This document shows positions 1-13,269 of a stretch of DNA of 32,000 nt, one piece after another. Position 1 is the stretch's first letter, and each line of letters opens with the position of its first letter. The notes under the pieces are model-generated. The model had not been told where the DNA came from and made no database searches. It saw only the letters and a list, made by a program, of their open reading frames with translations. The translations under genes were made by a program, and so were the position numbers. The stretch is from Paradevosia tibetensis (GTDB lineage: Bacteria > Pseudomonadota > Alphaproteobacteria > Rhizobiales > Devosiaceae). Location of the stretch: assembly GCF_008000755.1 (NCBI RefSeq), contig NZ_CP041690.1, positions 1,333,260 through 1,365,259 on the forward strand, read 5' to 3'.

Positions 1-46
1 CTCTGGCAGGTTTCCCCCGTTCATAAACTCAATCAAGGATTTGACC

Positions 47-1201
47 ATGCCCAATTGGCTGACCCGCCTCGCCGGCGGGCGACGGGACGCGCCGGTGGAA
101 CGCAAGTCGAGCGGCGGCGGGACGGTGTTTTCGCTCACGCAGTTGGGCGAGGCGAACTGGACGCGGCGAGGCTTCTCGAGCCTCGTCAACGAGGGCTTCG
201 CCAAGAACCCGGTAGTCTACCGCTGTGTGCGCATGGTGGCCGAGGCGGCCAATTCGGTGCCGCTGGTGGTCGAGGAAAACGGCAGGCGGGTAAGCGATCA
301 CCCGGTGCTGCAATTGCTCCGCCGCCCCAATCCGCGCCAGTCGGGGAGCGAACTGCTGGAGGCGGTGTATTCGTACCTGCAGACGGCGGGAAACGCCTAT
401 CTCGAAGCGGCGATCGTCGAGGGCGAGGTCAAGGGGCTCTTCGCGCTGCGGCCGGACCGCATGAAGGTGGTGGCGGGCCGCGACGGCTGGGCCTCGGCCT
501 ATGCCTATACGGTGGGCTCGAAGACGCGGCAGCTGAGCCAGGAGCCGGCGCCGATCCCGAAAGTGCTGCATATGGCGCTGTTCCACCCGCTCGACGACCA
601 CTACGGCATGGCTCCGCTCGAGGCAGCGCAGCAGAGCCTCGACATCCACAACGCCTCCGCCCTCTGGAACAAGGCGCTGCTCGACAACGCGGCCCGGCCT
701 TCTGGGGCGCTGGTCTATTCGATGGGGGCGGGGAATCTGACGCCCGACCAGTTCGACAGGCTCAAGGACGAGTTGGAGGAACAGTTTGCCGGCGCTGCAA
801 ATGCCGGGCGGCCGATGGTGCTGGAAGGCGGGCTCGACTGGAAGACCATCGCGCTTTCGCCCCGGGACATGGATTTCATCGAGGCGCGGCACGGCGCGGC
901 GCGCGATATCGCGCTGGCGTTCGGCGTGCCGCCGATGCTGCTCGGGCTGCCGGGGGACAACACCTATTCGAACATGGTCGAGGCCAACCGGGCGCTGTGG
1001 CGGCAGACGGTGATGCCGCTGGTGCGGCGGGTGGCGGACGATCTGAGCTACTGGCTGGCGCCGGCGTTTGGCGGGGTGAGCGTGGTCGCGGACTTCGATG
1101 GCGTCGAGGCGCTGGCGGAGGATCGCGCGGCACTCTGGGAGCGGGTGGGGGGCGCTGGGTTCCTCAGTGATGAGGAGAAGCGGGGGATGCTGGGGGTTTA
1201 G
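47..1201 (+). CDS. Phage portal protein, HK97 family (GTA g3)
   Basis: The track ORF 41..1201 has portal-like motifs (NPVVYRCVRMVAEAANSVPL; LEGGLDWKTIALSPRDMDFIEARHGAARDIALAFGVPPMLLG) and strong GC3 bias. ATG at 47 has AAGGA 7 nt upstream; TTG at 41 is the alternative start. Stop is TAG 1199-1201. Confidence 0.94.
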   Translation: MPNWLTRLAGGRRDAPVERKSSGGGTVFSLTQLGEANWTRRGFSSLVNEGFAKNPVVYRCVRMVAEAANSVPLVVEENGRRVSDHPVLQLLRRPNPRQSGSELLEAVYSYLQTAGNAYLEAAIVEGEVKGLFALRPDRMKVVAGRDGWASAYAYTVGSKTRQLSQEPAPIPKVLHMALFHPLDDHYGMAPLEAAQQSLDIHNASALWNKALLDNAARPSGALVYSMGAGNLTPDQFDRLKDELEEQFAGAANAGRPMVLEGGLDWKTIALSPRDMDFIEARHGAARDIALAFGVPPMLLGLPGDNTYSNMVEANRALWRQTVMPLVRRVADDLSYWLAPAFGGVSVVADFDGVEALAEDRAALWERVGGAGFLSDEEKRGMLGV

Positions 1202-1223
1202 GTGGGACAAGTGCTTGGGGCAG

Positions 1224-1347
1224 CCCCTCACCCGGCGCTGCGCGCCACCCTTTCCCCGAGGGGGCGAGGGTTGGGAGCGTGTTGCGCTTGCCCCAACGAA
1301 AACCCTCGCCCCGTCGGGGAGAGGGTGCCCGGCAGGGCGGTGAGGGG
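1224..1347. repeat. Inverted pair of GC-rich hairpin repeats (family 2)
   Basis: 1224-1272 (cccctcacccggcgctgcgcgccaccctttccccgagggggcgagggtt) closely matches the reverse complement of 1301-1347. Each arm has an internal hairpin of the CCCTCnCCCC-loop-GGGGnGAGGG type. Confidence 0.8.
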
Positions 1348-1371
1348 TCGCAAGGGTGAGATCTCGATTTT

Positions 1372-1472
1372 GGCTCACCCCCACCCTCAATCCCTCCCCA
1401 CAAGGGGAGGGAAGCCTTGAGGCACGGTCGAGCCAGCAGGCCTCCCTCTCCCTTGTGAGGAGGGGTCGAGCC
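1372..1472 (-). repeat. Composite GC-rich hairpin repeat (family 1), full unit in reverse orientation with an internal deletion in one arm
   Basis: The reverse complement aligns along its length with the units at 4601-4714 and 9313-9423. One arm is ggctcacccccaccctcaatccctccccacaaggggagggaag; the other is a truncated arm at 1432-1472. Core hairpin is CCCTCCCC-ACAA-GGGGAGGG. Confidence 0.85.
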
Positions 1473-1483
1473 ACAAACGCAAT

Positions 1484-1687
1484 ATGGAGACATCCATGGA
1501 CGAGCTAACCCGCAGCGTGGTCGCGCGCGGTGACCTGGCGCATCTGGCGCTGTTTTTGTGGGCGACGATGAGCTCGACGCTGCTGGTCTGGGCGCTGCGC
1601 GAGCTGGCGGCGGCCAGTAAGCGGTTCAACGATTTCGTGCACGAGATCGCCACGATCAATCAGCTTTTCAGACGGAAGGACGAGTGA
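1484..1687 (+). CDS. Small hydrophobic protein in the position of GTA g3.5
   Basis: 67-codon ORF with high GC3 and one hydrophobic helix (LAHLALFLWATMSSTLLVWAL). It sits between portal and protease, as g3.5 does in RcGTA. The alternative start ATG 1496 has GGAGA 5 nt upstream. Confidence 0.55.
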   Translation: METSMDELTRSVVARGDLAHLALFLWATMSSTLLVWALRELAAASKRFNDFVHEIATINQLFRRKDE

Positions 1688-1815
1688 TGGCGGAAAAGAC
1701 CAATTCCGAGGCCAACCAGGTGTTCCGGCAGTTTGCCTGGAACCTGGCGGGCACGCTGGCGAGCGTGAAGGCCGGGCAGCGCCCGCAGGCCGGCAAGGGC
1801 GGGAGCAAGCGGTGA
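1687..1815 (+). CDS. 42-codon micro-ORF (MAEKTNSEANQVFRQFAWNLAGTLASVKAGQRPQAGKGGSKR), not in the ORF track
   Basis: Its ATG at 1687 shares the A of the upstream TGA (TGATG). Its TGA at 1813-1815 overlaps the protease GTG at 1812 (GTGA). By hand count, 39 of 42 third codon positions are G/C. Confidence 0.4.
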   Translation: MAEKTNSEANQVFRQFAWNLAGTLASVKAGQRPQAGKGGSKR

Positions 1816-2303
1816 GCGGCATTCCGATCGACGAGACGGGGCGGTTCGCCGGCTATGCCAGCGTCTTTTCCAGGGTCGACGAGGGCGGCGATATCGTCAT
1901 GCCCGAGGCGTTTGCCAGGAGCCTCAAGCGGCGCGGGACGGAGCGGATCCGGCTCCTCTTCCAGCACGACCCCAAGGAGCCCGTCGGTACCTGGGAGCGG
2001 ATCGTGGAGGACGGGTTCGGGCTCTGGGTGGAAGGGCGGCTGGTGCCGGGCGTTCCGCGCGCCGACGCGCTGCGAAAACTCATCGAGCGCGGGGCCATCG
2101 ACGGGCTGTCCATCGGCTTTCGCACCGTCAGGGCCACGCGCGAGGCGGCGACGGGTTACCGCAAGCTCTGGCAGATCGACCTTTGGGAAATCTCCATCGT
2201 GACTTTCCCGATGATGGAGGGCGCGCGCATCGCGGCGGCCTCTCCGGACGCGCACCTGCAGCGGGCGCTGCAGGCGACGGTTTCTCTCCTCAAAAAACCC
2301 TGA
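1812..2303 (+). CDS. HK97-family prohead protease (GTA g4)
   Basis: Typical family motifs are present: GRFAGYASVFSRVDEGGDIVMPEAF, LLFQHDPKEPVG, GLSIGF, LWEISIVTFPM. GTG start; stop TGA 2301-2303. Confidence 0.92.
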   Translation: MSGIPIDETGRFAGYASVFSRVDEGGDIVMPEAFARSLKRRGTERIRLLFQHDPKEPVGTWERIVEDGFGLWVEGRLVPGVPRADALRKLIERGAIDGLSIGFRTVRATREAATGYRKLWQIDLWEISIVTFPMMEGARIAAASPDAHLQRALQATVSLLKKP

Positions 2304-2316
2304 AGGACTTTACGGC

Positions 2317-3537
2317 ATGACCGAAAAGATGACCGACGGCCTCGAAATCAAGGCCGGAGCGGGCAGTGACGATGCTGCGCTCTTCCAGCTCATGAATGCG
2401 TTCGAGAGCTTCAAGATGGAGAACGACGCGCGGCTCGACCGGCTCGAGAAGCGCGGCGCCAGCGATCCGCTGACCGAGGAAAAGCTCGAGCGCATCAACG
2501 CCGCGCTCGATGGCTACAAGGCCGCCATGGACCGGGCCGCGCTCGACCGCGCGCGCCCCTCGCTCGAGGGTGGGCGCAGCGATGCGGGCGACGAATACAA
2601 GGAGGCCTTTTCGGCCTATGTGAAGCGCGGCGAGGAAAAATCGCTCTCGGTCGGCGTCAATGCCGATGGCGGCTATGTCGTGCCGGGAGAGACCGAGGCC
2701 GAGATCACCCGGCGCCTGACCGAGATCTCGCCGATCCGGGCCATCGCAGGTGTCCGCCAGGTCTCCTCCTCGGTCTACAAGCGCCCGATCTCGATCACCG
2801 GTCCGGCGACGGGCTGGGTGGGTGAAACCGACGCGCGTCCGCAGACGGCGAGCCAGACGATCGATGCGATCAGCTACCCGACGATGGAACTCTACGCCAT
2901 GCCGGCGGCGACCTCGGCCTTTCTCGATGACGCAGCGGTGGATGTGGGCCAGTGGATCGCCGAGGAGGTCAACGCGGCCTTCGCCGAGCAGGAAACGGCG
3001 GCCTTCGTCAACGGCGACGGGGTCAGCAAGCCGACCGGGTTCCTCAGCGCCACGCTCGCGGCCGAAAGCGCCTGGGCGTGGGGCAAGCTCGGCTACGTGG
3101 CGACGGGCGTTTCGGGCGATTTCCCGAGCGATGACCAGTCCGACGTGCTGATCGACCTGGTCTATACGCTCAAGGCCGGCTACCGCCAGAACGCGAGCTG
3201 GGTGATGAACCGGCGCACCCAGGGCGCCATTCGCAAGCTCAAGGATACTGAGGGCAACTACCTCTGGCAGCCGGCGGCGGTGGCGGGCGGCAACGCCACG
3301 CTGCTCGGGTTCAACCTGGTGGAAGCCGAGGACATGCCCGATATCGGCGCGGGAACGACGCCGATCGCCTTCGGCGACTTCCGCCGCGGCTACCTGATCG
3401 TGGACCGCCAGGGCGTCAACGTGCTGCGCGATCCGTTCTCGGCCAAGCCTTATGTGCTGTTCTACACGACCAAGCGCGTGGGCGGCGGCATCGCCGATTT
3501 CGACGCGATCAAGCTGCTCAAGTTCGCGGTGAGCTGA
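2317..3537 (+). CDS. HK97-family major capsid protein (GTA g5)
   Basis: 406 aa with an N-terminal coiled delta-like region followed by the capsid fold (GGYVVP, AMPAATSAFLDDAAVDVGQWIAEEV, NRRTQGAIRKLKD, FGDFRRGYLIVDRQG). AAGGA lies upstream of ATG 2317. Confidence 0.95.
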   Translation: MTEKMTDGLEIKAGAGSDDAALFQLMNAFESFKMENDARLDRLEKRGASDPLTEEKLERINAALDGYKAAMDRAALDRARPSLEGGRSDAGDEYKEAFSAYVKRGEEKSLSVGVNADGGYVVPGETEAEITRRLTEISPIRAIAGVRQVSSSVYKRPISITGPATGWVGETDARPQTASQTIDAISYPTMELYAMPAATSAFLDDAAVDVGQWIAEEVNAAFAEQETAAFVNGDGVSKPTGFLSATLAAESAWAWGKLGYVATGVSGDFPSDDQSDVLIDLVYTLKAGYRQNASWVMNRRTQGAIRKLKDTEGNYLWQPAAVAGGNATLLGFNLVEAEDMPDIGAGTTPIAFGDFRRGYLIVDRQGVNVLRDPFSAKPYVLFYTTKRVGGGIADFDAIKLLKFAVS

Positions 3538-3559
3538 GCCGGCAACGCGCTCTGAGACA

Positions 3560-3655
3560 CCCTCCCCCTTGCGGGGAGGGAACAAGGGTGGGGGTGGGTC
3601 AACTCCCCCCGGGCTCACCTCCACCCTCAATCCCTCCCCACAAGGGGGAGGGAAG
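3560..3655. repeat. Two half-copies of the family-1 hairpin repeat, arms facing each other
   Basis: 3560-3598 is the reverse complement of the cttgtt-type arm (ccctcccccttgcggggagggaacaagggtgggggtg). 3611-3655 is a ctcaat-type arm (gggctcacctccaccctcaatccctccccacaagggggagggaag). Confidence 0.85.
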
Positions 3656-3679
3656 TTCCTCCCAACAAGGATCGACATC

Positions 3680-4246
3680 ATGACCTCTTACCTTCTGGCG
3701 GGACCCGCCCAGGAGCCGGTGACGCTCGCCGAGGCGAAGGCGTTCCTGCGGCTCGATGACGAGGCCGAGGACGGGCTGGTCTCGACCCTCATCACGGCGG
3801 CGCGGCTGCATGTGGAGGGGATCACCGGCCGGGCGCTGCTGGCGCAGAGCTGGCGCGTAGTGCTCGATGCCTGGCCAAGGGACCGGAGCGTGAGGCTCCC
3901 CGTGACCCCGCTCATGAGCGTGGCGGCGGTGACCGCCTATGACGCGGATGGCGTTGGGCACGAGATTGCGCTGGCCCAGTTCTGGCCGGAGAACGGCAGC
4001 CTGCTGCTGCCGCTGAACGTGGCCGGCATGCCGGTGCTGCGCGAGCGGCAGGGCATCGAGGTCGACTACGTCGCCGGCTTCGGCACAGACCCCGAGGACG
4101 TGCCGGCCGATATCCGCCAGGCGCTGCTGGCGCTGGTTGGATACTGGTTCGAACACCGCGACGCGGTGATCGTGGCAGGCTCGGGGGCGGTGGTGCCGAC
4201 CGGGTTCGATCGGCTGGTGGCGCCTTATCGGAGCGTGCGGCTATGA
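3680..4246 (+). CDS. Head-tail connector/adaptor protein (gp6-like, GTA g6)
   Basis: MTSYLLAGPAQEPVTLAEAKAFLRLDDEAEDGLVSTLITAARLHVE is a typical gp6-like N-terminus. ATG 3680 has AAGGA 7 nt upstream. The track ORF start at 3569 lies inside the repeat and is rejected. Confidence 0.85.
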   Translation: MTSYLLAGPAQEPVTLAEAKAFLRLDDEAEDGLVSTLITAARLHVEGITGRALLAQSWRVVLDAWPRDRSVRLPVTPLMSVAAVTAYDADGVGHEIALAQFWPENGSLLLPLNVAGMPVLRERQGIEVDYVAGFGTDPEDVPADIRQALLALVGYWFEHRDAVIVAGSGAVVPTGFDRLVAPYRSVRL

Positions 4247-4584
4247 GCGAGCGCATCCCTTCGATCGGAACCCTGACCGACCGCATCCAGCTGCTGCGGC
4301 GCGAGATGATGAGCGAGCCGGGCGGCGGGCACGTGAAGATCTACATTCCCGTCGCCACCGTATGGTCGCGCGTGCGCCCGCTGTCGGGGCGGCAGGGTGT
4401 AGATGCCGACGGGCGGGGCGTGGTGATGAGCCACGCGGTGGTAATGCGGTTTCGGTCCGACGTGAAGCCTGGGGATCGGGTGGTCTATCGCGGCCGCAAG
4501 CTCGAGGTGGTGACGGCGGGCGATGTGAACGGGCGGCGGGCGTACCTGAGCTGCTCGTGCGCGGAGAGGGCGGTGACGGGATGA
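4243..4584 (+). CDS. Head closure / head-tail adaptor protein (GTA g7)
   Basis: 113 aa with an ATGA overlap onto g6. Pattern is typical of the head-tail joining family (TLTDRIQLLR, VATVWSRVRPLSGRQ, HAVVMRFRSDVKPGDRVVYRGRKLEV). Confidence 0.85.
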   Translation: MSERIPSIGTLTDRIQLLRREMMSEPGGGHVKIYIPVATVWSRVRPLSGRQGVDADGRGVVMSHAVVMRFRSDVKPGDRVVYRGRKLEVVTAGDVNGRRAYLSCSCAERAVTG

Positions 4585-4600
4585 GCGGCGTTGCGTTCGT

Positions 4601-4714
4601 GGCTCACCCCCACCCTTGTTCCCTCCCCACAGGGGGGAGGGAGACCTGCCGGCTTTATGGTGCCCCGTCGCCTCACTCCCCCTTTTGGGCAGAAATCGAG
4701 GGTGGGGCTGCACC
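4601..4714 (+). repeat. Composite GC-rich hairpin repeat (family 1), full unit
   Basis: Aligns end to end with 9313-9423. Left arm is ggctcacccccacccttgttccctccccacaggggggagggagacctgccggc; a degenerate inverted right arm ends in gagggtggggctgcacc, directly abutting the g8 ATG. Confidence 0.85.
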
Positions 4715-5125
4715 ATGACCCATCCGATCACCTCCCTCCAGTCGGCGCTCGTCACAGCCCTTCGCGCCGACGCCGGGCTCACGGCGCTCATCGGGGTCGA
4801 TGCAATCTTCGATGCACCGCCGGTGGGCAACACCGGTAGCTATATCGTGGTGGCCAGGCACGACATGCGGCCGCGCGACGGCGACCTGATGCCGGGTAAC
4901 GAGCATCGGATGCTGCTGCACATCTGGCACGCCGACCCTTCGCGGAAGGCGGCGCTGGAGATTGCCGAGCGCGTGGCGGCGCTGGTGTTCGATGCCGATC
5001 TCGACGATGCCGATCTCGTCGTGACGCACCGGCGCCACGAGGGCACCGAGACGACGATCGACAAGGATACCGGCAGGGCCCGGGCGGCGCTGGCGCTGCG
5101 CTTTTTCTCAGAACCCACATCCTAG
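4715..5125 (+). CDS. DUF3168-type tail terminator/completion protein (GTA g8)
   Basis: MTHPITSLQSALVTALRADAGLTALIG and SYIVVARHDMRP are typical of DUF3168, and the position fits. The track start at 4616 is repeat-derived (MFPPHRGEGD) and rejected. Confidence 0.8.
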   Translation: MTHPITSLQSALVTALRADAGLTALIGVDAIFDAPPVGNTGSYIVVARHDMRPRDGDLMPGNEHRMLLHIWHADPSRKAALEIAERVAALVFDADLDDADLVVTHRRHEGTETTIDKDTGRARAALALRFFSEPTS

Positions 5126-5134
5126 GAGGATCGC

Positions 5135-5548
5135 ATGGCAGCCCAGAGCGGCAAGGACATGCTTTTGAAGCTCGATGCCGACGGTTCGGGCAGTTTTCTC
5201 ACTGTCGCGGGACTGCGCACCCGGACGCTCGCCTTCAACGCGGCGTCCATCGACATCACGGACGCCGAAAGCGCCGGGCGCTGGCGCGAGCTGCTGGCGG
5301 GGGCGGGGGTGAAGAAGGCCTCGGCTTCGGGCTCGGGGATCTTCAAGGACCAGGCCTCGGACGCGGCGATCCGCGAGCTCTTCTTCGGCGGCACCATCCG
5401 CAGCTGGCAGTTGATCCTGCCCGATTTCGGGGTAGTTGAGGGACCGTTCCAGATCACCGCGCTCGAGTTCAAGGGCGACCATGCCGGCGAGGTGACGTTC
5501 GACCTGGCGCTGGAAAGCGCCGGGGCGTTGGCGTTTACGGCGGTTTAG
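5135..5548 (+). CDS. Major tail (tube) protein, TP901-1 family (GTA g9)
   Basis: 137 aa. GKDMLLKLDADGSGSFLTVAGLRTRTLAFNAASIDITDAES and GEVTFDLALESAG are typical. AGGAGGA lies 4 nt upstream of ATG 5135. Confidence 0.9.
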   Translation: MAAQSGKDMLLKLDADGSGSFLTVAGLRTRTLAFNAASIDITDAESAGRWRELLAGAGVKKASASGSGIFKDQASDAAIRELFFGGTIRSWQLILPDFGVVEGPFQITALEFKGDHAGEVTFDLALESAGALAFTAV

Positions 5549-5844
5549 CCTTTTCCGCCGGAGCGGTTCTGCGCGGCGTGATAGACGCGAGTGATGGTAA
5601 TGACCTGCATGCTTTCGCTTTGGTCCAGGTGATAGACGATCACGTAGGGAAGGCCGGGAACGACCTTTTCCAAGAGATCGCCTCTGCTGCGGCGCCCGCT
5701 GACGAAGAGCGCGAGGCCGTCGCCGGTCTCGCGTAATATGTCGGCAACGCGGATCGCCGCGGTGCGGTTGTCCCGCGCGATATGGATGAGCTGGTTCTTG
5801 ATGTCGTTGAGTGCACTTTCAGACCACTGAACCTTGCGCTTCAA
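5545..5844 (-). CDS. Type II toxin, RelE/ParE family
   Basis: 99 aa. WSESALNDIKNQLIHIARDNRTAAIRVADIL and LPYVIVYHLDQSESMQVITITRVYHAAQ match the ParE/RelE pattern. Its start overlaps the antitoxin stop by 4 nt, and its stop overlaps the g9 stop (TTAG). Confidence 0.85.
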   Translation of the reverse strand: MKRKVQWSESALNDIKNQLIHIARDNRTAAIRVADILRETGDGLALFVSGRRSRGDLLEKVVPGLPYVIVYHLDQSESMQVITITRVYHAAQNRSGGKG

Positions 5845-6104
5845 GCCGACTTTCTCCGGCTAGCCTGGTCGATCGCAGCATAGATTTCGGCCATCGCCTC
5901 TTCGTGAGAGACCACTCTGCCGGCTTCGATGTCCTCAATTCCCTCCAGGATGCCTTCGATGATCGGCAGTTCGATCGCGACAAATGCTTCGATCGCCTCC
6001 GCCGCGACGTAAGAGAGGCTGCGCTTTCCGGCCTCGGCGATCTTCTCGAGCTTCGCCTTTGTCTCTTCGGGAATTCTGACGGTGATCGTGGTGGTGGCGG
6101 CCAT
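5841..6104 (-). CDS. Ribbon-helix-helix (CopG/ParD-like) antitoxin
   Basis: MAATTTITVRIPEETKAKLEKIAEAGKRSLSYVAAEAIEAFV is an RHH beta-strand plus helix pattern. ATG at 6104 has AAGGAG 8 nt upstream. The track start at 6134 is a less likely extension. Confidence 0.8.
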   Translation of the reverse strand: MAATTTITVRIPEETKAKLEKIAEAGKRSLSYVAAEAIEAFVAIELPIIEGILEGIEDIEAGRVVSHEEAMAEIYAAIDQASRRKSA

Positions 6105-6116
6105 GGGACGCACTCC

Positions 6117-6146
6117 TTGTGTGCACTTGTACACAACCTAACACAA
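6117..6146 (-). promoter_or_regulatory. Candidate operator/promoter region of the TA cassette
   Basis: ttgtgtGTGCACttGTACAcaa contains the palindromic hexamers GTGCAC and TGTACA. TTGTGT/ACACAA motifs occur at 6117, 6131 and 6141. The region lies just upstream of the antitoxin SD and 10-50 nt from the g10 RBS on the other strand. Confidence 0.3.
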
Positions 6147-6167
6147 ACACTTCACGGAGACCATAAC

Positions 6168-6485
6168 ATGGCCAATCCGCAACGGGGCGAGATCGAGGCG
6201 GTGATCGGAGGCGAGCGGCGGGTGCTGTGCCTGACGCTGGGGGCGCTGGCGGAGCTGGAGGCGCGGCTGCAGGCCGGCGACCTGGTCGGGCTCTCCGAGC
6301 GCTTCGCCGGTGGACGCATCTCGGCACGGGATCTGACGGCGATCATCGGGGCGGGGCTGCGCGGGGCGGGCAATGCCATCGCTGATGACGACCTGGCGCG
6401 CATGGCGATCGAGGGCGGCCTCAAGGGCGCCGCCGAGGTGGCGGCCCGCCTGCTGCGGGCGACGTTCGGGGAGGCGGTGGAGTGA
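6168..6485 (+). CDS. GTA g10-type tail assembly chaperone
   Basis: MANPQRGEIEAVIGGERRVLCLTLGALAELEARL and ARDLTAIIGAGLRGAG are typical of the gene transfer agent family protein. GGAGA lies 8 nt upstream of ATG 6168. The track ORF start at 5811 is antisense to the antitoxin and rejected. Confidence 0.8.
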   Translation: MANPQRGEIEAVIGGERRVLCLTLGALAELEARLQAGDLVGLSERFAGGRISARDLTAIIGAGLRGAGNAIADDDLARMAIEGGLKGAAEVAARLLRATFGEAVE

Positions 6486-6676
6486 AGCCGTTTCCCTGGG
6501 ACGATGCCATGCAGATGGGCTTTGGCGTCATGCGCCTCTCCTCGCGCGAATTCTGGGGGCTGACGCCGCGTGAACTGGCTGCCGCCTTCGGCGCGCTGAG
6601 CGGGCCGGCGACGGCGCCGCCGCGCGAGCGGCTCGACGAGATGATGCTTGCCTTTCCGGATCGAGGGAGAAGTTGA
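6482..6676 (+). CDS. GTA g10.1-type small tail chaperone protein (rcc01693-like)
   Basis: MRLSSREFWGLTPRELAAAF is the typical motif. GTG start overlaps the g10 stop (GTGA) with GGAGG 7 nt upstream. The ORF is in the -1 frame relative to g10. Confidence 0.75.
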   Translation: MKPFPWDDAMQMGFGVMRLSSREFWGLTPRELAAAFGALSGPATAPPRERLDEMMLAFPDRGRS

Positions 6677-7224
6677 TGGCCGACACGGCATTTCCGGATG
6701 GATTCCGGGGCGAACTTGACGGGGTTTCCGGTGAACTCGAGCGGATCGGGTCGCTCGCCGACGGGGTGGCGCGGTCGTTCACCAACGCCTTCCGGGGGGC
6801 GATCTCGGATGGAAAATCGCTCAACGGCCTGCTCGGAGACATCGCGCGCAGCTTCGCGGACATCGCGCTCAAGGCGGCCTTCAAGCCGCTTGGAAACCTG
6901 GTCTCGGGGCTGATCGAAAATGTCTTCGCGGCGACCAACCCCGTGGTGCAGGGCGTGACGCCCTTCGCCAAAGGCGGAGTAATCGCCGCTCCCAGTTACT
7001 TTCCGCTCGGGCGGGGGCTGGGCGTGGCGGGCGAGGCCGGGGCCGAGGCGGTGATGCCCCTGATGCGCGGCGCGGACGGGCGATTGGGCGTGGCCGGTGG
7101 CGGCGGCGCTGTGAACGTGACGTTCAACGTGACGGCCAGCGACGCGCGCAGCTTTGTCGGCGCCGAGGCGGAAGTAGGCGCGATGCTGTTGCGGGCAGTC
7201 AGGCGCGGGAGCAGGGCGAGCTAG
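6676..7224 (+). CDS. Short tail tape measure protein (GTA g11)
   Basis: 182 aa, Gly/Ala-rich, with the PFAKGGV and AGEAGAEAVMPL motifs seen in tape measure C-terminal regions. ATG 6676 overlaps the g10.1 stop (TGATG); TTG 6673 is the alternative start. Confidence 0.8.
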   Translation: MADTAFPDGFRGELDGVSGELERIGSLADGVARSFTNAFRGAISDGKSLNGLLGDIARSFADIALKAAFKPLGNLVSGLIENVFAATNPVVQGVTPFAKGGVIAAPSYFPLGRGLGVAGEAGAEAVMPLMRGADGRLGVAGGGGAVNVTFNVTASDARSFVGAEAEVGAMLLRAVRRGSRAS

Positions 7225-7276
7225 GCGGAGCTGGGGTTTGGGGTTTCCGTTCGTCCGACTCTTTTTGGAGGGGGAG

Positions 7277-7328
7277 GTCACCCCCACCCTTGTTCCCTCC
7301 CCACAAGGGGGAGGGAGACCTGCTGGCT
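7277..7328 (+). repeat. Single arm of the family-1 hairpin repeat
   Basis: ggtcacccccacccttgttccctccccacaagggggagggagacctgctggc is nearly identical to the left arms at 4601 and 9313. Confidence 0.85.
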
Positions 7329-7379
7329 GGGGCGGTGCGGCGCCTCGTCTTCGGCACTCAACAAAGAAGGATCGAAAAG

Positions 7380-7997
7380 ATGTCCTTTCATCCAATCCGC
7401 TTCCCTCTCGACATCGCGCTGGGGGCGCGTGGGGGGCCGGAGCGGGCTACCGATATCGTTACGCTGGCCTCGGGGCGCGAGGAGCGCAATTCGCGCTGGG
7501 CGCGGTCGCGGCGCAAATACAACGCGGGGTATGGCGTCAAGTCGCGGACTGACATGCAGGCGGTGCTCGCCTTCTTCGAGGAACGGCGCGGGCGATTCCA
7601 TGCATTCCTCTGGCGCGATGGGCTCGATTATTGCTCGGGCGGCATGGTCCCCGGCGCGGCCGACCAGGCGATCGGCACTGGCGACGGGGTCAAGACGTCC
7701 TTTCAGCTGGTGAAGCGCTACGGCGCCGATTTCGACCCCTATCTGCGGCCGATCACCAAGCCGGTGCCCGGTTCGGTGCTGCTGGCGGTGGACGGTGTCG
7801 AAACCGGTGACTTCGAGGTGGACGAAATCACCGGCGTCGTGACCCTGGAGACCGCGCCCGAGGCGGGCGTGCAGGTGACGGCAGGGTTCCTCTTCGATGT
7901 CCCGGTGCGCTTCGATACCGATCGGCTCGATATCGAACTCACCAGTTTCGATGCGGCTGAGGCGCCGAGCATTCCCCTGATCGAGGTGCTCGAATGA
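7380..7997 (+). CDS. DUF2460-family distal tail protein (GTA g12)
   Basis: MSFHPIRFPLDIALGARGGPERATDIVTLASGREERNSRWARSRRKYNAGYG is the characteristic N-terminus. GAAGGA lies upstream of ATG 7380. The track start at 7290 is repeat-derived and rejected. Confidence 0.9.
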   Translation: MSFHPIRFPLDIALGARGGPERATDIVTLASGREERNSRWARSRRKYNAGYGVKSRTDMQAVLAFFEERRGRFHAFLWRDGLDYCSGGMVPGAADQAIGTGDGVKTSFQLVKRYGADFDPYLRPITKPVPGSVLLAVDGVETGDFEVDEITGVVTLETAPEAGVQVTAGFLFDVPVRFDTDRLDIELTSFDAAEAPSIPLIEVLE

Positions 7998-8884
7998 GGA
8001 CGTTCGAAGCAGCCTTCGCCAGCCACATTGCCACCGGGCAGACAACGCTCGCTTCCTGCTGGCGCATCACGCGGACCGATGGCGTCGTGCTCGGCTTCAC
8101 CGACCACGATGTCACACTCAGTTTCGAGGGCACAAACTTCGTGCCCGCCCATGGGCTAGACGCGGGCGAGGGCACGGCGAAGCTTGGGGCGCAGGTCGAT
8201 ACGTCCGAAGTGGTGGGTATTCTTCATTCCGATGCGATCGCCGAAACCGACATCCTGCTCGGGCGGTTCGACGGTGCGCTGGTCGAGACCTTCAGGGTGA
8301 ACTGGCGCGACACCGCGATGCGCGCGCTGATGCGCCGCGACACCATCGGGGAGATCGTGCGCGAGGACGGTGCTTTCCGCGCGGAACTGCGTTCCGGGCA
8401 GCAGGCGCTCAATGTGCCCAGGGGGCGCATTTACCAGGCGCTTTGCGACGCCGAACTGGGCGACGGACGTTGCGGGGTGAACCTGGAGGTCGACGCGTTC
8501 CGGGCCGCCGCCGGCGTGGCGGCGGTGCACGATCGTTTCCGCCTCGAGGTGACGGGGCTCGACGGGTTCGACGAGGGCTGGTTCTCGTTCGGACGGGTGG
8601 GCTGGACGAGCGGATCCCGCATCGGCAAGGGCGACCGTATCGTCAGCCACGCGCGGATCGGCGGCGCGGATGTGCTCGCCTTCGATGCGCCCGTGGGGGA
8701 TTGGGTGGCGGTCGGCGACGCGCTGACGGCGTTCGCGGGGTGCGACAGGCGGTTTTCGAGTTGCCGGGGCAAGTTCGCCAACGCCGCCAGTTTTCGCGGA
8801 TTTCCGCACATTCCGGGCAACGACTTCGTGATGCGCTACCCCAAGTCCGGCGATGTGCTCGAAGGGCAGGCGCTGGTCAAATGA
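7994..8884 (+). CDS. DUF2163 / BR0599-family baseplate hub protein (GTA g13)
   Basis: TLASCWRITRTDGVVLGFTDHD and the C-terminal CDRRFSSCRGKFANAASFRGFPHIPGNDF are typical. ATGA overlap with g12. Confidence 0.9.
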   Translation: MRTFEAAFASHIATGQTTLASCWRITRTDGVVLGFTDHDVTLSFEGTNFVPAHGLDAGEGTAKLGAQVDTSEVVGILHSDAIAETDILLGRFDGALVETFRVNWRDTAMRALMRRDTIGEIVREDGAFRAELRSGQQALNVPRGRIYQALCDAELGDGRCGVNLEVDAFRAAAGVAAVHDRFRLEVTGLDGFDEGWFSFGRVGWTSGSRIGKGDRIVSHARIGGADVLAFDAPVGDWVAVGDALTAFAGCDRRFSSCRGKFANAASFRGFPHIPGNDFVMRYPKSGDVLEGQALVK

Positions 8885-9297
8885 GCGTGGCAGCGGATCG
8901 GATCGTCCTCGAGGCCCGCCGCTGGGTGGGCACGCCGTACCGGCATCAGTCATCGACGCTGGGGGCGGGATGCGACTGCCTGGGGCTGGTGCGCGGGGTC
9001 TGGCGCGAAATCTATGGCAGCGAGCCGATGGCAATCCCTGCCTATCGCGCCGACCTGCGCGATGTGGCCTTTGCCGGCGCGCTGCAGGCGGCCGCGGACC
9101 GGCTGCTGGTGCGCGCCGAAGGGCTCGCCGCCGGGCGGGTGGTGCTGTTCCGCCTCAACGGCGCTGTAGCGGCCAAGCATTGCGGCATCCTCGTCGGAGG
9201 GGGCCGCTTCGTCCATGCCCAGGAGGGTCTGGGCGTGGTGGAGGCCAATCTCGAAGGCTGGGGCACGCGGGTGGCGGGGGTATTTGAGTTTCCGTGA
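8881..9297 (+). CDS. NlpC/P60-family cell wall peptidase (GTA g14)
   Basis: ARRWVGTPYRHQSSTLGAGCDCLGLVRGVWRE carries the catalytic Cys context, and AKHCGIL and FVHAQEG are also present. ATGA overlap with g13. The track start at 8443 lies inside g13 and is rejected. Confidence 0.9.
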   Translation: MSVAADRIVLEARRWVGTPYRHQSSTLGAGCDCLGLVRGVWREIYGSEPMAIPAYRADLRDVAFAGALQAAADRLLVRAEGLAAGRVVLFRLNGAVAAKHCGILVGGGRFVHAQEGLGVVEANLEGWGTRVAGVFEFP

Positions 9298-9312
9298 GAG
9301 TTTTGGAGTTGG

Positions 9313-9423
9313 GGTTCACCCCCGCCCTTGTTCCCTCCCCACAAGGGGGAGGGAGACCTGCTGGCTTGGTCGTGCCCCATCTTCTCGCTCCCTTGCAGGG
9401 AGGGATTGAGGGTGGGGTGAGCC
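9313..9423 (+). repeat. Composite GC-rich hairpin repeat (family 1), full unit
   Basis: Left arm is ggttcacccccgcccttgttccctccccacaagggggagggagacctgctggc. After a spacer comes the inverted right arm ctcgctcccttgcagggagggattgagggtggggtgagcc. Confidence 0.88.
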
Positions 9424-9510
9424 CGCAAGGGGGGAGGCGTTTCGATCCAGTTTGTCGTGGGTGGCAACGCCCCGTCCCGCATTCGTCGATTATTCATCTC
9501 AGGAGCCGCA

Positions 9511-12500
9511 ATGGCTACGTTAGCACTCTCGGTTGCCGGGCAGTTCGTCGGCGGGTTCGTGGGCGGTCCGATCGGGGCGACGATCGGGCGGGCGCTGGGG
9601 GCGCTTGCCGGCGCGGCGGTGGACAACGCGCTTTTCGGCGAGAAGCCGCAGCGGCGCGCCGGCAGCGACTTCCAGCTCCAGGGCTCGCTCGAGGGTGGCG
9701 CGGTGCCGCGTCTCTACGGGTGGGGCCGGGTAAGCGGCAACATCATCTGGGCCACCGAGCTCGAGGAGATGACCAGCGAGGGTTCGGGCGCCAAGGGTTT
9801 CGGGCAGCAGACCAGCGAAAGCGAGATCTTCGCCAATTTCGCGGTGGGCCTGTGCGAGGGCGAGGTGCACCGCCTGGGGCGCGTCTGGGCCGACGGCAAG
9901 CTGCTCGACCTGAGCGGGCTCAACGTGCGCTTTTACCGCGGCACCTCCGGGCAGGGCGTCGACAGCCTCATCGAGGCCAAGCAGGGCGCGGGCAACGCCC
10001 CGGCCTATCGCGGGCTCTGCTACCTCGTATTCGAACGCCTGCCGGTCTCCCAGTTCGGCAACAGGATTCCGCAGATCTCGGTGGAGCTGTGCCGGGTGGT
10101 GGGGCAACTCGAACCCTCGATCAAGGCCGTGACGGTCATCCCCGGAGCAACCGAGTTCGGCTACGACCCCGTGGCGCGCGTGCGCGTGGTCGGCCCGGGA
10201 GAGACCGCGGCCGAGAACACCCACATGGCAGCCGGCATCTCGGACTGGACGCTCTCGATCGATGAACTGGTGGCGCTGTGCCCCAACCTCGAACACGTCT
10301 CGCTGGTGGTGACCTGGTTCGGCACTGACCTGCGCTGCGCCCAATGCCTCATCGAACCGAGGGTCGAGGGCGCCGGGCGCGTCATCGAGGGGACCTCGTG
10401 GAGCGTGGCCGGGCTGACCCGCGCCACGGCAGGCGTGGTTTCGACCCACGAGGGCGGCCCGGCTTATGGCGGCACGCCCTCGGACGCGGCGGTAATGGCG
10501 GCGATTGCCGATCTCAAGGCGCGCGGCCTCAAGGTGACGCTCTATCCGCTGGTGATGATGGATATTCCGCAGGGCAACACCCTCACCGACCCCTACTGGG
10601 GCGGCTACCAGCCCGCCTATCCCTGGCGCGGGCGCGTGACGTGCGACCCGGCGCCCGGGAGCGCAGGATCGCCCGATCGCAGTGGCGCGGTCCTCGACCA
10701 GGTCGCGGACTTCGTCGGAACGGGCAGCGATTGGCGCTACCGCCGGATGGTGACGCACTACGCGAGCCTGGCGGCGAGCGCGGGGGGCGTCGACGCCGTC
10801 ATCATCGGCTCGGAAATGCGTGCGATGACCACCCTGCGGGACGCTTCGGACAGCTTCCCGTTCGTAACGGCGCTGGTGGCGCTGGCTGCGGAGGTGCGGT
10901 CCATCGTCGGCGGGGCGACCAAGCTCACCTATGCCGCAGACTGGTCCGAGTTCTCAGGCTACCAGCCGGACGGGGAGAAGTTCTTCCATCTCGATCCGCT
11001 CTGGGCGAGCGCCGATATCGACGCGGTGGGGATCGACAACTACATGCCCCTGACCGACTGGCGCGATGGCGACGACCATCTCGACGCGGCCGAAGCGGAT
11101 AGCCTCTACGAGCAGGATTACCTCCAGAGCCGGATCGCGGGCGGGGAGGGCTATGACTGGTACTATGGCTCGGACGGCGCACGGGTGGCGCAGGTCCGCT
11201 CCCCGATCGGGGATGGAGCTTATGGGGAACCCTGGGTCTGGCGATTCAAGGATATCGAGGCCTGGTGGAGCAACGCACACCACGATCGCCCGGGCGGCGT
11301 GCGCTCGGCGTCGACCACGAGCTGGGTGCCGCAATCCAAGCCGATCTGGTTCACCGAACTGGGTTGCGCGGCGGTGGACAAGGGCGCCAACCAGCCCAAC
11401 GTATTCGGCGATCCGAAAAGCTCGGAGAGCGGGCGACCGTATTTTTCGAGCGGCCTGCCCGATCCGCTCGGGCAAAGGCAGTTCCTGCGGGCGCAACTGG
11501 ACTATTGGGGCGGGGCGGCAAACCCCGCCTCAAGCGTTTATGGCGGCCCGATGGTCGCGCGCATCTACCTCTGGACGTGGGACGCGCGGCCCTATCCCGC
11601 CTTTCCCGCCGATACCGCAAGCTGGAGCGATGGCGCCAACCACGCCACCGGCCACTGGCTGACGGGTCGCACCGGAGCCATGGCGAGCGACGAGCTGATC
11701 GCAGCCGTCGCCGCCGACTACGGAGCTGAATTGGACCTGGTCCAGCCGGTGCAACCCTTGATCCACGGACTGCGCATAGAAGGCCTCGCCTCCGCCCGCG
11801 AGGCGCTGGGCGAGGTGCTGGCGGTGAGCGGGCTTTCGGCACGTGACAGCGCCCAAGGCCTGCAATTCCGCCGCGGCAATGCACGAAACGCCATTGCGGC
11901 GGGCGAACTGGTGGCGGACGACGGGCCGATCCTTTCGCGGCGTCGGCCTGACCCCGGGGAGGCCCTGGGCCGGGTGGCGCTCACCTATTTCGACCGCGAG
12001 CGGGCCTACCTCACTGGAACGGTGACGGCGCTGCGTCTTGCCGGCGGCGCGGCGGGAGCCGAAGCCTCCAACCTCGTGCTCGACCTCGCCGGGGCGCGGC
12101 ATGCCGCCGAACGCATCCTGCTCGATCGCAGCGCCGCGGCGGAGACGGTGGAATTCTCCCTGCCGCCCTCGATGGCGGCGGTGGAGGTGGGCGATGTCCT
12201 CACGCTCGAGGGCGTCGCGGAAGGCCCGTTCGAGGTGACGGAAATCCGGGACGGGCTGGCGCGCAAGATCTCGGCCCGCGCGATGCCCCCGGCGATGACT
12301 GCTGCCATCACCTCCGATCGCCCGCAGGCCCCCATGGCGCTGACCGGGGTGAAGTCCATGCCCATCGTGCTCGCGGCGCACCTGCCGCCGCTGCCCGACG
12401 CGCCATTGCGATCCCGCCTGGCGTTTGCCGCCTCCGCCAGGCCGTGGCCGGGCGACGTGACGATCAACGACGAGGTGACCGGCTCGACCCTGGCGCGCCT

Positions 12501-13269
12501 TTCGGGCGCCACGGTGCTTGGGGAACTTACAGCTGACCTGCCGGCAGGGACGTTCGGCGGCTGGGACGACCTCACCACGGTACGGCTGCGCGTCTATTCG
12601 GGGCACTTTTCCTCGGTGAGCGAAGCGGCCGTGCTGGCCGGGAGCAACAGGCTGGCGGTGCAGGGCAACGACGGGGAATGGGAAATCCTCGGCTTTGCCG
12701 CGGCGGAGCTGCTGGCGCCGGGGCTCTACGAACTCAGCCACCTTCTGCGCGGCATGGACGGCTCGGCGAGCGGGGCAGCAGCGTCCGGCAACGCCCTCTT
12801 CGTGCCCGATGCGCGGGCGGCGGTGGTGCCCGTAGACGCGGCCTGGCTCAACACGACCCTTGACCTTCGGGCCTTCGCCGGGCGCTCCGACCTGACGGGG
12901 CAGGCACTCGCGATACCTCTGACATTAGCACCGGTTCTACCCCTCGCGCCGGTCGAGCCGATCGCCAGCCGCGCTCTGCCATCGGGCGTCGTGACGATCA
13001 CCTGGACGCGCAGGAGCAGGGGAGACCCCAACGGCACCGGCGCCGGCGTGCCGCCGCTCGAATACGTGCCCGAAACCTACCGGGTGACGGTGTTCGACGC
13101 GGGCGTGCCCGCGCGGGTGGTGACCGTCTCGACCACCTCATTTGTCTATTCGTCCGCTGACCAGACCAGCGATTTCGGGGCCTTGCCGGCGGACTTCGCC
13201 TTCGAGGTCGCCCAGGTGAGCGCCGGCTACGGCCCAGGACACCCAGCCCAGGGAGATTTCCATGCCTGA
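9511..13269 (+). CDS. GTA g15-type host-specificity / tail protein (glycoside-hydrolase-like plus phage-tail domains)
   Basis: 1252 aa. It has an N-terminal glycine zipper (GGFVGGPIGATIGRALGALAGAAV), then RLYGWGRVSGNIIWAT, YRGLCYLVFERLP and NRIPQISVEL, all typical of g15. AGGAG lies 5 nt upstream of ATG 9511. The track start at 9457 is rejected. Confidence 0.92.
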   Translation: MATLALSVAGQFVGGFVGGPIGATIGRALGALAGAAVDNALFGEKPQRRAGSDFQLQGSLEGGAVPRLYGWGRVSGNIIWATELEEMTSEGSGAKGFGQQTSESEIFANFAVGLCEGEVHRLGRVWADGKLLDLSGLNVRFYRGTSGQGVDSLIEAKQGAGNAPAYRGLCYLVFERLPVSQFGNRIPQISVELCRVVGQLEPSIKAVTVIPGATEFGYDPVARVRVVGPGETAAENTHMAAGISDWTLSIDELVALCPNLEHVSLVVTWFGTDLRCAQCLIEPRVEGAGRVIEGTSWSVAGLTRATAGVVSTHEGGPAYGGTPSDAAVMAAIADLKARGLKVTLYPLVMMDIPQGNTLTDPYWGGYQPAYPWRGRVTCDPAPGSAGSPDRSGAVLDQVADFVGTGSDWRYRRMVTHYASLAASAGGVDAVIIGSEMRAMTTLRDASDSFPFVTALVALAAEVRSIVGGATKLTYAADWSEFSGYQPDGEKFFHLDPLWASADIDAVGIDNYMPLTDWRDGDDHLDAAEADSLYEQDYLQSRIAGGEGYDWYYGSDGARVAQVRSPIGDGAYGEPWVWRFKDIEAWWSNAHHDRPGGVRSASTTSWVPQSKPIWFTELGCAAVDKGANQPNVFGDPKSSESGRPYFSSGLPDPLGQRQFLRAQLDYWGGAANPASSVYGGPMVARIYLWTWDARPYPAFPADTASWSDGANHATGHWLTGRTGAMASDELIAAVAADYGAELDLVQPVQPLIHGLRIEGLASAREALGEVLAVSGLSARDSAQGLQFRRGNARNAIAAGELVADDGPILSRRRPDPGEALGRVALTYFDRERAYLTGTVTALRLAGGAAGAEASNLVLDLAGARHAAERILLDRSAAAETVEFSLPPSMAAVEVGDVLTLEGVAEGPFEVTEIRDGLARKISARAMPPAMTAAITSDRPQAPMALTGVKSMPIVLAAHLPPLPDAPLRSRLAFAASARPWPGDVTINDEVTGSTLARLSGATVLGELTADLPAGTFGGWDDLTTVRLRVYSGHFSSVSEAAVLAGSNRLAVQGNDGEWEILGFAAAELLAPGLYELSHLLRGMDGSASGAAASGNALFVPDARAAVVPVDAAWLNTTLDLRAFAGRSDLTGQALAIPLTLAPVLPLAPVEPIASRALPSGVVTITWTRRSRGDPNGTGAGVPPLEYVPETYRVTVFDAGVPARVVTVSTTSFVYSSADQTSDFGALPADFAFEVAQVSAGYGPGHPAQGDFHA

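Follow-up and report, generated by a model that had tools for sequence, protein, structure and literature searches.

An antisense ParDE-class toxin-antitoxin module between two tail genes of a Devosiaceae gene transfer agent cluster

Gene transfer agent (GTA) clusters are commonly portrayed as compact operons, co-directional and strongly conserved. The stretch of Paradevosia tibetensis DNA analyzed here (32,000 nt, hereafter the window) carries a cluster of the RcGTA type, and between its tail tube gene g9 and its tail assembly chaperone gene g10 lies a toxin-antitoxin cassette of two genes read from the opposite strand. This raises an obvious question: Is such a cassette a working part of the GTA or a passenger in it, and how did it come to be there? 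The explanation that we favor, with a probability of roughly 0.7, is that it is a self-maintaining addiction module of the ParDE class, an old passenger resident in a permissive slot of the cluster.

The g9-g10 junction is 619 nt long (5549-6167), extending from the TAG of g9 at 5546-5548 to the ATG of g10 at 6168 (Table 1). The two cassette genes are the sole minus-strand genes of the cluster, all remaining genes from 41 to 14038 being on the plus strand. The stop codons of the toxin gene and of g9 overlap by 2 nt (TTAG), and a terminator scan found no terminator-like site between these convergent genes. The antitoxin and toxin genes overlap by 4 nt, TTGA (5841-5844), so that the toxin starts with TTG, the same start that gene callers picked on related contigs; antitoxin and toxin are arranged alike in the intact cassettes of other GTA clusters. 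The length of the junction, the TTAG overlap and the lack of a terminator had all been read correctly in the initial annotation of this DNA; the 4-nt overlap, given there as ATGA, had not.

To identify the toxin, we combined family models, profile searches and structure prediction. The Pfam model ParE_toxin (PF05016) matches it with 33.3 bits, above the gathering score of 23, over profile positions 1-88 of 89, and homologues resident in other GTA clusters score 47.6 bits (locus L015) and 53.5 bits (L007). A search of PDB sequences with the single toxin sequence returned noise only, and a profile was required for matches: the profile of GTA-resident toxins finds ParE2 (5CW7, E=7.7e-9) as well as 6X0A and 5CEG. 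An exact-sequence look-up of the window toxin gave no match. The AlphaFold model, computed from an alignment of 52 sequences, has a pLDDT (predicted local confidence) of 89.3 and a pTM (predicted template-modeling score) of 0.81; its 13 best PDB matches are all ParE chains, with template-modeling (TM) scores of 0.71-0.83, whereas RelE, YafQ and HigB reach just 0.43-0.61. Sequence identity to solved ParEs is 15-29%. A RelE-type mRNase is ruled out by this fold ranking together with the NCBIfam RelE/StbE model (TIGR02385), against which the toxin scores 18.2 bits, under the cut-off of 27.9. The toxins of the window lineage are peculiar at residues 50-60, where they read GRRSR-GDLLEK in place of the family's GRPGRVxGTYEK, with a one-residue deletion at the conserved core; judged by their ratio of nonsynonymous to synonymous substitution (dN/dS), these altered toxins are still under purifying selection, and the change may reflect an altered activity or partner specificity.

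The upstream gene encodes a ribbon-helix-helix (RHH) antitoxin. It scores 23.6 bits against Pfam RHH_1 (cut-off 20.5), and the antitoxin family profile matches chain 6XRW_B, the RHH antitoxin of the Pseudomonas aeruginosa ParDE complex, over residues 5-70 (E=1.2e-6), with the CopG regulators 6IYA and 7ETR following at about 1e-5. Its C-terminal half is conserved in intact pairs and scrambled in toxin-less stubs (loci L001 and L010). The antitoxin falls short of NCBIfam RelB_like (NF048017; 31 bits, cut-off 50), and neither cassette protein falls in a curated NCBIfam equivalog. In six pairwise comparisons dN/dS is 0.08-0.22 for the toxin and 0.05-0.17 for the antitoxin (0.05-0.22 for both together): both genes are under purifying selection. 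Chance open reading frames (ORFs) antisense to GC-rich genes are ruled out by these values, by the hidden Markov model matches and by conservation. The calls of a RelE/ParE toxin and an RHH antitoxin in the initial annotation are thus borne out, the former as ParE by Pfam, PDB profile match and predicted fold, and the family searches proposed there as a check place both ORFs above the Pfam gathering scores. Judged by family membership, the pair is a genuine type II toxin-antitoxin module of the ParDE class, for which toxicity, neutralization and a gyrase target are predicted.

The DNA between the antitoxin gene and g10 appears to hold the control region of the cassette. The GGAG of the antitoxin ribosome-binding site is kept at this position in homologous loci. 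Upstream of the antitoxin gene, an inverted-repeat search also found a palindrome of 9+9 nt, TTGTGTGCA/TGTACACAA, at 6117-6136, and ACACAA repeats reach to ~6147, 9 nt short of the g10 ribosome-binding site. The motif TGyTAnnnTGTACACA...ACACA stands at a constant distance from the start codon in nearly all of ~50 upstream regions of the family, from GTA and non-GTA members alike. We read it as a candidate extended -10 element (TGTTAGGTT in the window) overlapping the predicted RHH operator, in which case the upstream part of the cassette promoter must overlap the ribosome-binding site of g10. Empty g9-g10 junctions have spacers of 7-11 nt with GAGG or GGAG. Conservation of the DNA between antitoxin and g10 was considered as proof of a shared insertion and rejected, since the same motif lies upstream of non-GTA members.

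Base composition sets the cassette apart from its flanks, with a GC content of 0.57-0.60 over 5550-6150 vs 0.65-0.73 on either side, in line with the dip to about 58% reported initially. The dip is modest at third codon positions (GC3), which are partly ameliorated: GC3 in the window is 0.73-0.77 for the cassette genes and 0.87-0.90 for g9 and g10, and across lineages the cassette GC3 of 0.64-0.83 lies near the host GC3 of 0.80-0.92 and follows it. A recent foreign acquisition, argued from low GC, is ruled out by this largely ameliorated, host-following GC3.

How widespread is the arrangement? We scanned for g9 with one genome per species and kept 80 loci (L001-L080), the best g9 matches, with 80-85% identity, being from Devosia and Pelagibacterium. 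Where both genes were found (76 loci), the g9-g10 gap has a median of 13 nt, and in outgroup Hyphomicrobiales and most Devosiaceae the gap is -1 to about 25 nt, which supports the view that the cassette was added to the ancestral layout of the GTA. Among the Devosiaceae-like clusters with a measured junction, 34 of 41 have neither cassette nor remnant, and in most relatives the GTA cluster is just as conserved, at a junction length of -1 to 11 nt. Because so many clusters do without it, the cassette is not needed for GTA function, and the initial suggestion that the module stabilizes the GTA locus is weakened by the same count.

A minus-strand antitoxin-toxin cassette nevertheless occupies the g9-g10 junction in four scanned genomes: Pelagibacterium luteolum (L007), P. 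xiamenense (L031), a Devosia metagenome-assembled genome (MAG; L015) and a Rhizobiales MAG (L021). With further loci included, intact cassettes in the same slot and orientation are found in three deep Devosiaceae lineages, namely the window group (L081-L084), the Pelagibacterium pair L007/L031, and L015/L021/L138/L143/L144/P0009. The initial annotation had called the cassette a secondary insertion and proposed that the junction be compared in relatives. That comparison upholds the insertion into an ancestral layout and finds the junction empty in most relatives; what does not survive is any notion of a private or recent event, given homologous cassettes in three lineages and remnants in three further loci. 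In one cassette-bearing metagenome contig, L138 (1004-2138), g12 is apparently absent between g11 and g13 and g10 is called at 84 aa; this GTA cluster may be degenerating while its toxin-antitoxin pair stays intact.

Relatives of the toxin divide by identity. Only four database sequences are very close to the window toxin (77-98% identity), and those with readable context lie between g9 and g10 or adjoin g10 on a short contig; P0009, P0013, P0025 and P0041, with 60-75% identity to the L015 toxin, are all in the g9-g10 slot. In all, seven relatives whose toxin is at least 60% identical to a GTA-resident copy were tested, and all seven occupy that slot. At 35-53% identity, relatives are found on plasmids, in other mobile elements and elsewhere on chromosomes, as in P0014 (53%; an element with a resolvase, a type IV secretion system and Prim-Pol) and P0112 (49%; a second, non-GTA chromosomal copy in a Pelagibacterium isolate). 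The database holds 1457 relatives at E<=1e-10. No g9 or g10 match occurs in the flanks, up to 2.5 kb a side, of 52 of 53 metagenome loci, and the antitoxin stands beside the toxin in 46 of these 52. Alphaproteobacterial plasmids contribute 56 records at 40-48% toxin identity, annotated as RelE/ParE plus CopG, and a single phage record matched. The family is thus an ordinary and predominantly plasmid-borne one.

Some junctions preserve the cassette in decay. Two loci, L001 and L010, retain an antitoxin stub only, with the RHH half intact and no toxin, and in L008 a g9-g10 gap of 95 nt contains just the antitoxin ribosome-binding site and the operator (CCTCCATTTGTACACAGGCCAACACAAACCAGCACA). The sequence ACACA is present in 7 of 28 expanded g9-g10 gaps, exactly those with a cassette or remnant. 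An addiction module is expected to decay in this order, the toxin being lost before the antitoxin.

Did the cassette enter this slot once, or was it captured at least three times at a g9-g10 hotspot, or swapped between clusters through the conserved g9 and g10 flanks? The geometry argues against repeated capture. One orientation is common to all ten intact GTA-resident cassettes and to the three remnants, the toxin stop lies -14 to +3 nt from the g9 stop in 9 of the 10 intact cassettes, and the distance from antitoxin start to g10 start is 51-84 nt in every one of them. No integrase, target-site duplication or flanking repeat was found at the cassette, and, as described above, no toxin relative at 60% identity or more was found outside a GTA cluster. 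GTA-resident antitoxins share the motif TTT(I/L)TVR, other members having mostly STTMTIR; its T and V occur together in just 1 of 40 non-GTA antitoxins. In a tree of concatenated g8-g11, the cassette lineages follow the GTA clades: the window clusters with L081; L015 and L021 share a clade (87% support); and the Pelagibacterium clade (100% support) unites L007, L031, the stub L010 and two cassette-free species with gaps of 9 and 36 nt. In the antitoxin tree the GTA-resident copies form one group, with an internal order that matches the GTA gene tree. Antitoxin identity tracks that of g8 and g11 in all pairs (69, 69 and 73% for L015-L021), with 49-56% between clades vs 44-71% for g8/g11, and in the window group synonymous divergence (dS) is equal in the cassette genes (0.41-0.58) and the flanks (0.46-0.50).

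Several observations weigh against the passenger reading, most of them against its single origin. In neighbor-joining bootstraps of 50-52 taxa, the split between GTA-resident and other copies is recovered in 37-52% of replicates for the antitoxin, 0% for the toxin and 12-17% for both joined. With proteins of ~90 aa, these trees do not separate a single from a multiple origin, and a single origin is no more than the likelier of the two. Between GTA lineages, toxins share 28-45% identity and so are no nearer to each other than the window toxin is to plasmid copies (40-48%), and by distance the nearest outside relative of each GTA lineage is a non-GTA copy. The cassette dS in L015/L021 and L007/L031 is 2-4 times that of the flanking g9 and g10, for which cassette exchange, weaker codon bias and saturation are candidate causes. 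A sigma-70 consensus scan of both strands found no promoter above chance, which is why the promoter was assigned from family conservation. Finally, that three lineages still have an intact pair after family-level divergence could point to a benefit for host or GTA rather than to pure addiction.

Repeated capture or swapping draws on the bootstrap values, the nearest outside relatives and the raised cassette dS, and also on the unrelated cargo found at g9-g10 elsewhere (an alpha/beta hydrolase, a lipoprotein-like ORF, a methyltransferase and a 139-aa ORF) and on L021, which has the cassette while its sister L027 has a gap of 1 nt. This last pair does not document a recent, precise gain or loss, a case that we ruled out: its flanking DNA is only ~80% identical, leaving ample time for loss. 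In view of the shared geometry and the shared antitoxin motif, we regard repeated capture or swapping as unlikely, although it deserves to be kept in mind, and we rate a single ancient insertion with many losses as about two-thirds probable.

How would such a passenger maintain itself? In the reading we prefer, the RHH antitoxin, alone or with the toxin, would repress its own promoter through the TGTACA-centered palindrome and TTGTGT repeats, and its C-terminal half would neutralize the ParE toxin, which, when free, would most likely act by poisoning DNA gyrase. The module would be a minimal antisense passenger, two genes and a promoter, in one of four non-coupled soft junctions described below. 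It would have entered the slot once, early in Devosiaceae, and then diverged together with the flanking GTA genes, persisting through its own addiction effect and purifying selection, with many losses in which the toxin went first and left antitoxin stubs and operator scars. Any influence on g9 or g10 expression would be a side effect of head-on transcription.

That influence could instead be the point of the arrangement. If the cassette were functionally integrated, GTA read-through in producer cells would meet the cassette promoter head-on and silence it, the labile antitoxin would decay and ParE would be freed in lysing cells; conversely, the repressor complex or an antisense transcript could damp leaky g9/g10 expression in non-producers. 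The convergent and divergent arrangement, in which neither side has a terminator, the cassette promoter region abutting the g10 ribosome-binding site and the purifying selection on intact pairs in three old lineages all fit such a scheme. So, more distantly, does the report that gyrase inhibitors raise RcGTA-mediated transfer frequency in Rhodobacter capsulatus, though the effect is on recipient cells and not on production (PMC9690577). However, most relatives with equally conserved GTA genes lack the cassette, the repeated toxin-first decay argues for a dispensable toxin, the regulatory DNA is of a generic family design and not GTA-specific, and no GTA activity in Devosiaceae was found in the literature searched. 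We therefore consider functional integration improbable, and hold out equally little prospect for its sharper form, in which ParE poisoning gyrase in producers would ensure their death or alter chromosome topology or fragmentation for headful packaging.

Least probable of all is that the cassette serves as abortive-infection cargo in a domesticated prophage-like locus, like defense genes in prophages: its position recalls that of morons in prophage late operons, its best sequence match is a ParE2 module with a solved structure, and toxin-antitoxin modules commonly act in defense against phage, but neither protein matches any of the 5027 defense models of PADLOC-DB 2.0 at E<=0.01, no defense genes adjoin the cassette, and the family is predominantly plasmid-borne.

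Returning to the passenger reading, why should this junction be permissive? Across the 80 loci, two kinds of junction can be told apart in the cluster: those at g6-g7, g10-g11, g11-g12 and g13-g14 almost always overlap or are tight, and those at g5-g6, g8-g9, g9-g10 and g12-g13 are often at least 90 nt long. These soft junctions seem to be the places where a change of protein stoichiometry is expected, between capsid and connector, on either side of the tube gene and behind the tape measure, and translational coupling is presumably dispensable at them. In the window, a palindromic repeat element, CACCCCCACCCTTGTTCCCTCCCCACAAGGGGGAGGG, with the hairpin CCCTCCCC-ACAA-GGGGAGGG, is present in four copies (3560-3601, 3615-3665, 4604-4654 and 7278-7328) that occupy the gaps g5-g6, g7-g8 and g12-g13; similar elements of the CCCTC/GAGGG type occupy the g9-g10 gap in, for example, L003, L018, L036 and L043. 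Other Hyphomicrobiales clusters carry cargo genes at soft junctions, mostly antisense: trypsin-like proteases, an alkaline phosphatase, an FkbM methyltransferase and another methyltransferase, an alpha/beta hydrolase, TerB and a lipoprotein-like ORF, with the trypsin-like proteases recurring at g5-g6 in Bosea and Chelatococcus relatives. As soft junctions collect repeats and, in other families, mostly antisense cargo, the toxin-antitoxin cassette is a single instance of a broader pattern. We found no description of this pattern in the literature searched.

Two kinds of cargo have features of their own. In L041 (4411-5566), a class I methyltransferase gene at g9-g10 is accompanied by a second copy of the 3' third of g9 (5177-5461, 94 aa), which suggests an insertion with partial target duplication. 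A conserved antisense lipoprotein-like ORF of 296-328 aa with no Pfam match lies at g9-g10 in both L054 (620-1606), an alphaproteobacterial MAG, and L064 (4416-5306), a Parvibaculum MAG.

It is instructive to compare the cassette with systems already known. Like ParDE modules with RHH antitoxins (chromosomal ParDE of P. aeruginosa, 6XRW; ParD3-ParE3 of Mesorhizobium opportunistum, 5CEG and 6X0A), it has the antitoxin gene followed by the toxin gene with a 4-nt overlap, an antitoxin with an N-terminal RHH domain and a presumed C-terminal extension, a probable palindromic operator in its own predicted promoter region and a predicted ParE fold (TM 0.77-0.83 to the ParE toxins); unlike them, it lies inside a GTA structural operon, and its toxin is only as close to solved ParEs as given above. 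The best sequence match of the toxin family is to PaaR2-PaaA2-ParE2 of Escherichia coli O157:H7 (5CW7, 5CZE and 5CZF). That system is a ParE module within a prophage-derived region, and so likewise a passenger in phage-like DNA. PaaA2 is a small non-RHH antitoxin, and a separate regulator, PaaR2, controls the operon. In the window, by contrast, a single RHH antitoxin presumably does both jobs, and PaaR2-PaaA2-ParE2 does not lie between tail structural genes. With the RelE/ParE plus CopG pairs of alphaproteobacterial plasmids (Sinorhizobium megaplasmids, 6-kb Phaeobacter plasmids and sphingomonad plasmids) the cassette shares family and gene order, and with metagenomic non-GTA members the TGyTAnnnTGTACACA upstream motif. 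Unlike these copies on plasmids or mobile elements (L140, for example, with resolvase, type IV secretion system and Prim-Pol), the window lineage is found only at g9-g10. Phage morons, extra genes with transcription of their own between conserved genes of a late operon, offer a further likeness: the cassette is an extra unit at a junction of a head-tail operon, present in some relatives and missing from others, lower in GC than its flanks and with a predicted promoter. Unlike morons, it runs antisense to the operon, the scan for terminators gave none behind the toxin gene, and the cassette cannot spread with its host element because a GTA does not package and spread its own genome.

The cluster that surrounds the cassette is of the RcGTA type: portal, protease, capsid and g6-g15 are co-directional and syntenic and include the GTA-specific domains, with matches for connector, head completion, gp17-like, tail tube, GTA-gp10, TAC_6, DUF2460, baseplate hub/BR0599 and NlpC/P60. 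GTA_TIM matches with 463.6 bits, together with Rcc01698_C, and g9 is a TP901-1 major tail protein by NCBIfam; the NCBIfam tape-measure model stays below its cut-off (129.6 vs 220). The cluster had been called otherwise intact, which holds for g3-g15; no terminase gene (g1 or g2) is found in the window, which starts at the portal gene. In a close relative, L081 (12772-14345), a divergent glyoxalase gene, not a terminase, precedes the portal gene, and the terminase genes of this GTA probably occupy a separate locus. At the far end, the GH108 muramidase gene, whose product has a PG_binding_3 domain, begins at the g15 stop on the plus strand, as it does in L081; this seems to be a conserved enzyme, for lysis or associated with the tail, that closes the cluster. 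The remainder of the window consists of ordinary chromosomal genes, among them a histidine kinase, cytochrome c maturation genes and a DegP-like protease.

Table 1. Positions of the cassette, its regulatory sites and the GTA genes in the window, followed by cargo loci in other Hyphomicrobiales clusters
Feature	Position	Strand	Remarks
Portal	41-1201	+	RcGTA-type cluster
S78 protease	1812-2303	+	RcGTA-type cluster
Capsid	2317-3537	+	RcGTA-type cluster
g6	3677-4246	+	RcGTA-type cluster
g7	4243-4584	+	RcGTA-type cluster
g8	4715-5125	+	RcGTA-type cluster
g9, tail tube protein	5135-5548	+	Left flank, convergent with toxin gene; Pfam Phage_tail_2, 5.6e-44
ParE-family toxin gene, 99 aa	5545-5844	-	TTG start, TAA stop (5545-5547); ORF, Pfam, profile and fold
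RHH antitoxin gene, 87 aa	5841-6104	-	ATG start, TGA stop inside the TTGA overlap
Likely toxin ribosome-binding site, GGAGA	5853-5857	-	Within 3' end of antitoxin gene; inferred from sequence reading
Antitoxin ribosome-binding site, AAGGAG	6113-6118	-	8 nt before ATG; sequence reading
Probable operator	6117-6147	.	Palindrome plus ACACAA (TTGTGT) repeats at ~10-nt spacing; inverted repeat and family conservation
Candidate extended -10 element, TGTTAGGTT	6135-6143	-	Family consensus TGyTAnnnT; inferred
g10 ribosome-binding site, GGAG	6156-6159	+	8 nt before ATG; sequence reading
g10, tail assembly chaperone	6168-6485	+	Right flank, divergent from antitoxin gene; Pfam Phage_TAC_11 (GTA-gp10), 4e-31
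g11	6482-6676	+	RcGTA-type cluster
g12, tape measure	6673-7224	+	RcGTA-type cluster
g13	up to 7997	+	RcGTA-type cluster
g14, hub	7994-8884	+	RcGTA-type cluster
NlpC/P60 peptidase	up to 9297	+	RcGTA-type cluster
GTA_TIM host-specificity protein	9457-13269	+	RcGTA-type cluster
GH108 muramidase	13262-14038	+	RcGTA-type cluster, far end
Cargo, L052	1789-2646		g5-g6
Cargo, L071	898-2385		g5-g6
Cargo, L074	900-2589		g5-g6
Cargo, L009	863-2356		
Cargo, L002	5582-6385		g12-g13
Cargo, L050	4547-5590		
Cargo, L068	3305-3865		g8-g9

The ParDE module itself is of a known kind; it is its location that is apparently undescribed and long-held, and the statement in the initial annotation that no toxin-antitoxin cassette was known from a GTA structural operon agrees with the literature that we searched, which gave none inside an RcGTA-type cluster. 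If coupling to the GTA were true, the cassette would be the first case of a toxin-antitoxin module set off by the transcription of a domesticated virus; if there is no coupling, it is an ordinary toxin-antitoxin module in an unusual but permissive place. Cultured Pelagibacterium strains with the cassette (P. luteolum CGMCC 1.10267 and P. xiamenense HS1C4-1) and without it (P. mangrovi WS-203, whose junction is empty) are available for experiments. In either case, a plasmid-type ParDE module has been kept in one slot across family-level divergence, with a readable decay series, and the cassette lends itself, as a clean natural case, to the study of how addiction modules survive and disappear on chromosomes. 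For the GTA clusters of Hyphomicrobiales, the picture of a compact operon is qualified by four loose junctions that collect repeats and antisense cargo.

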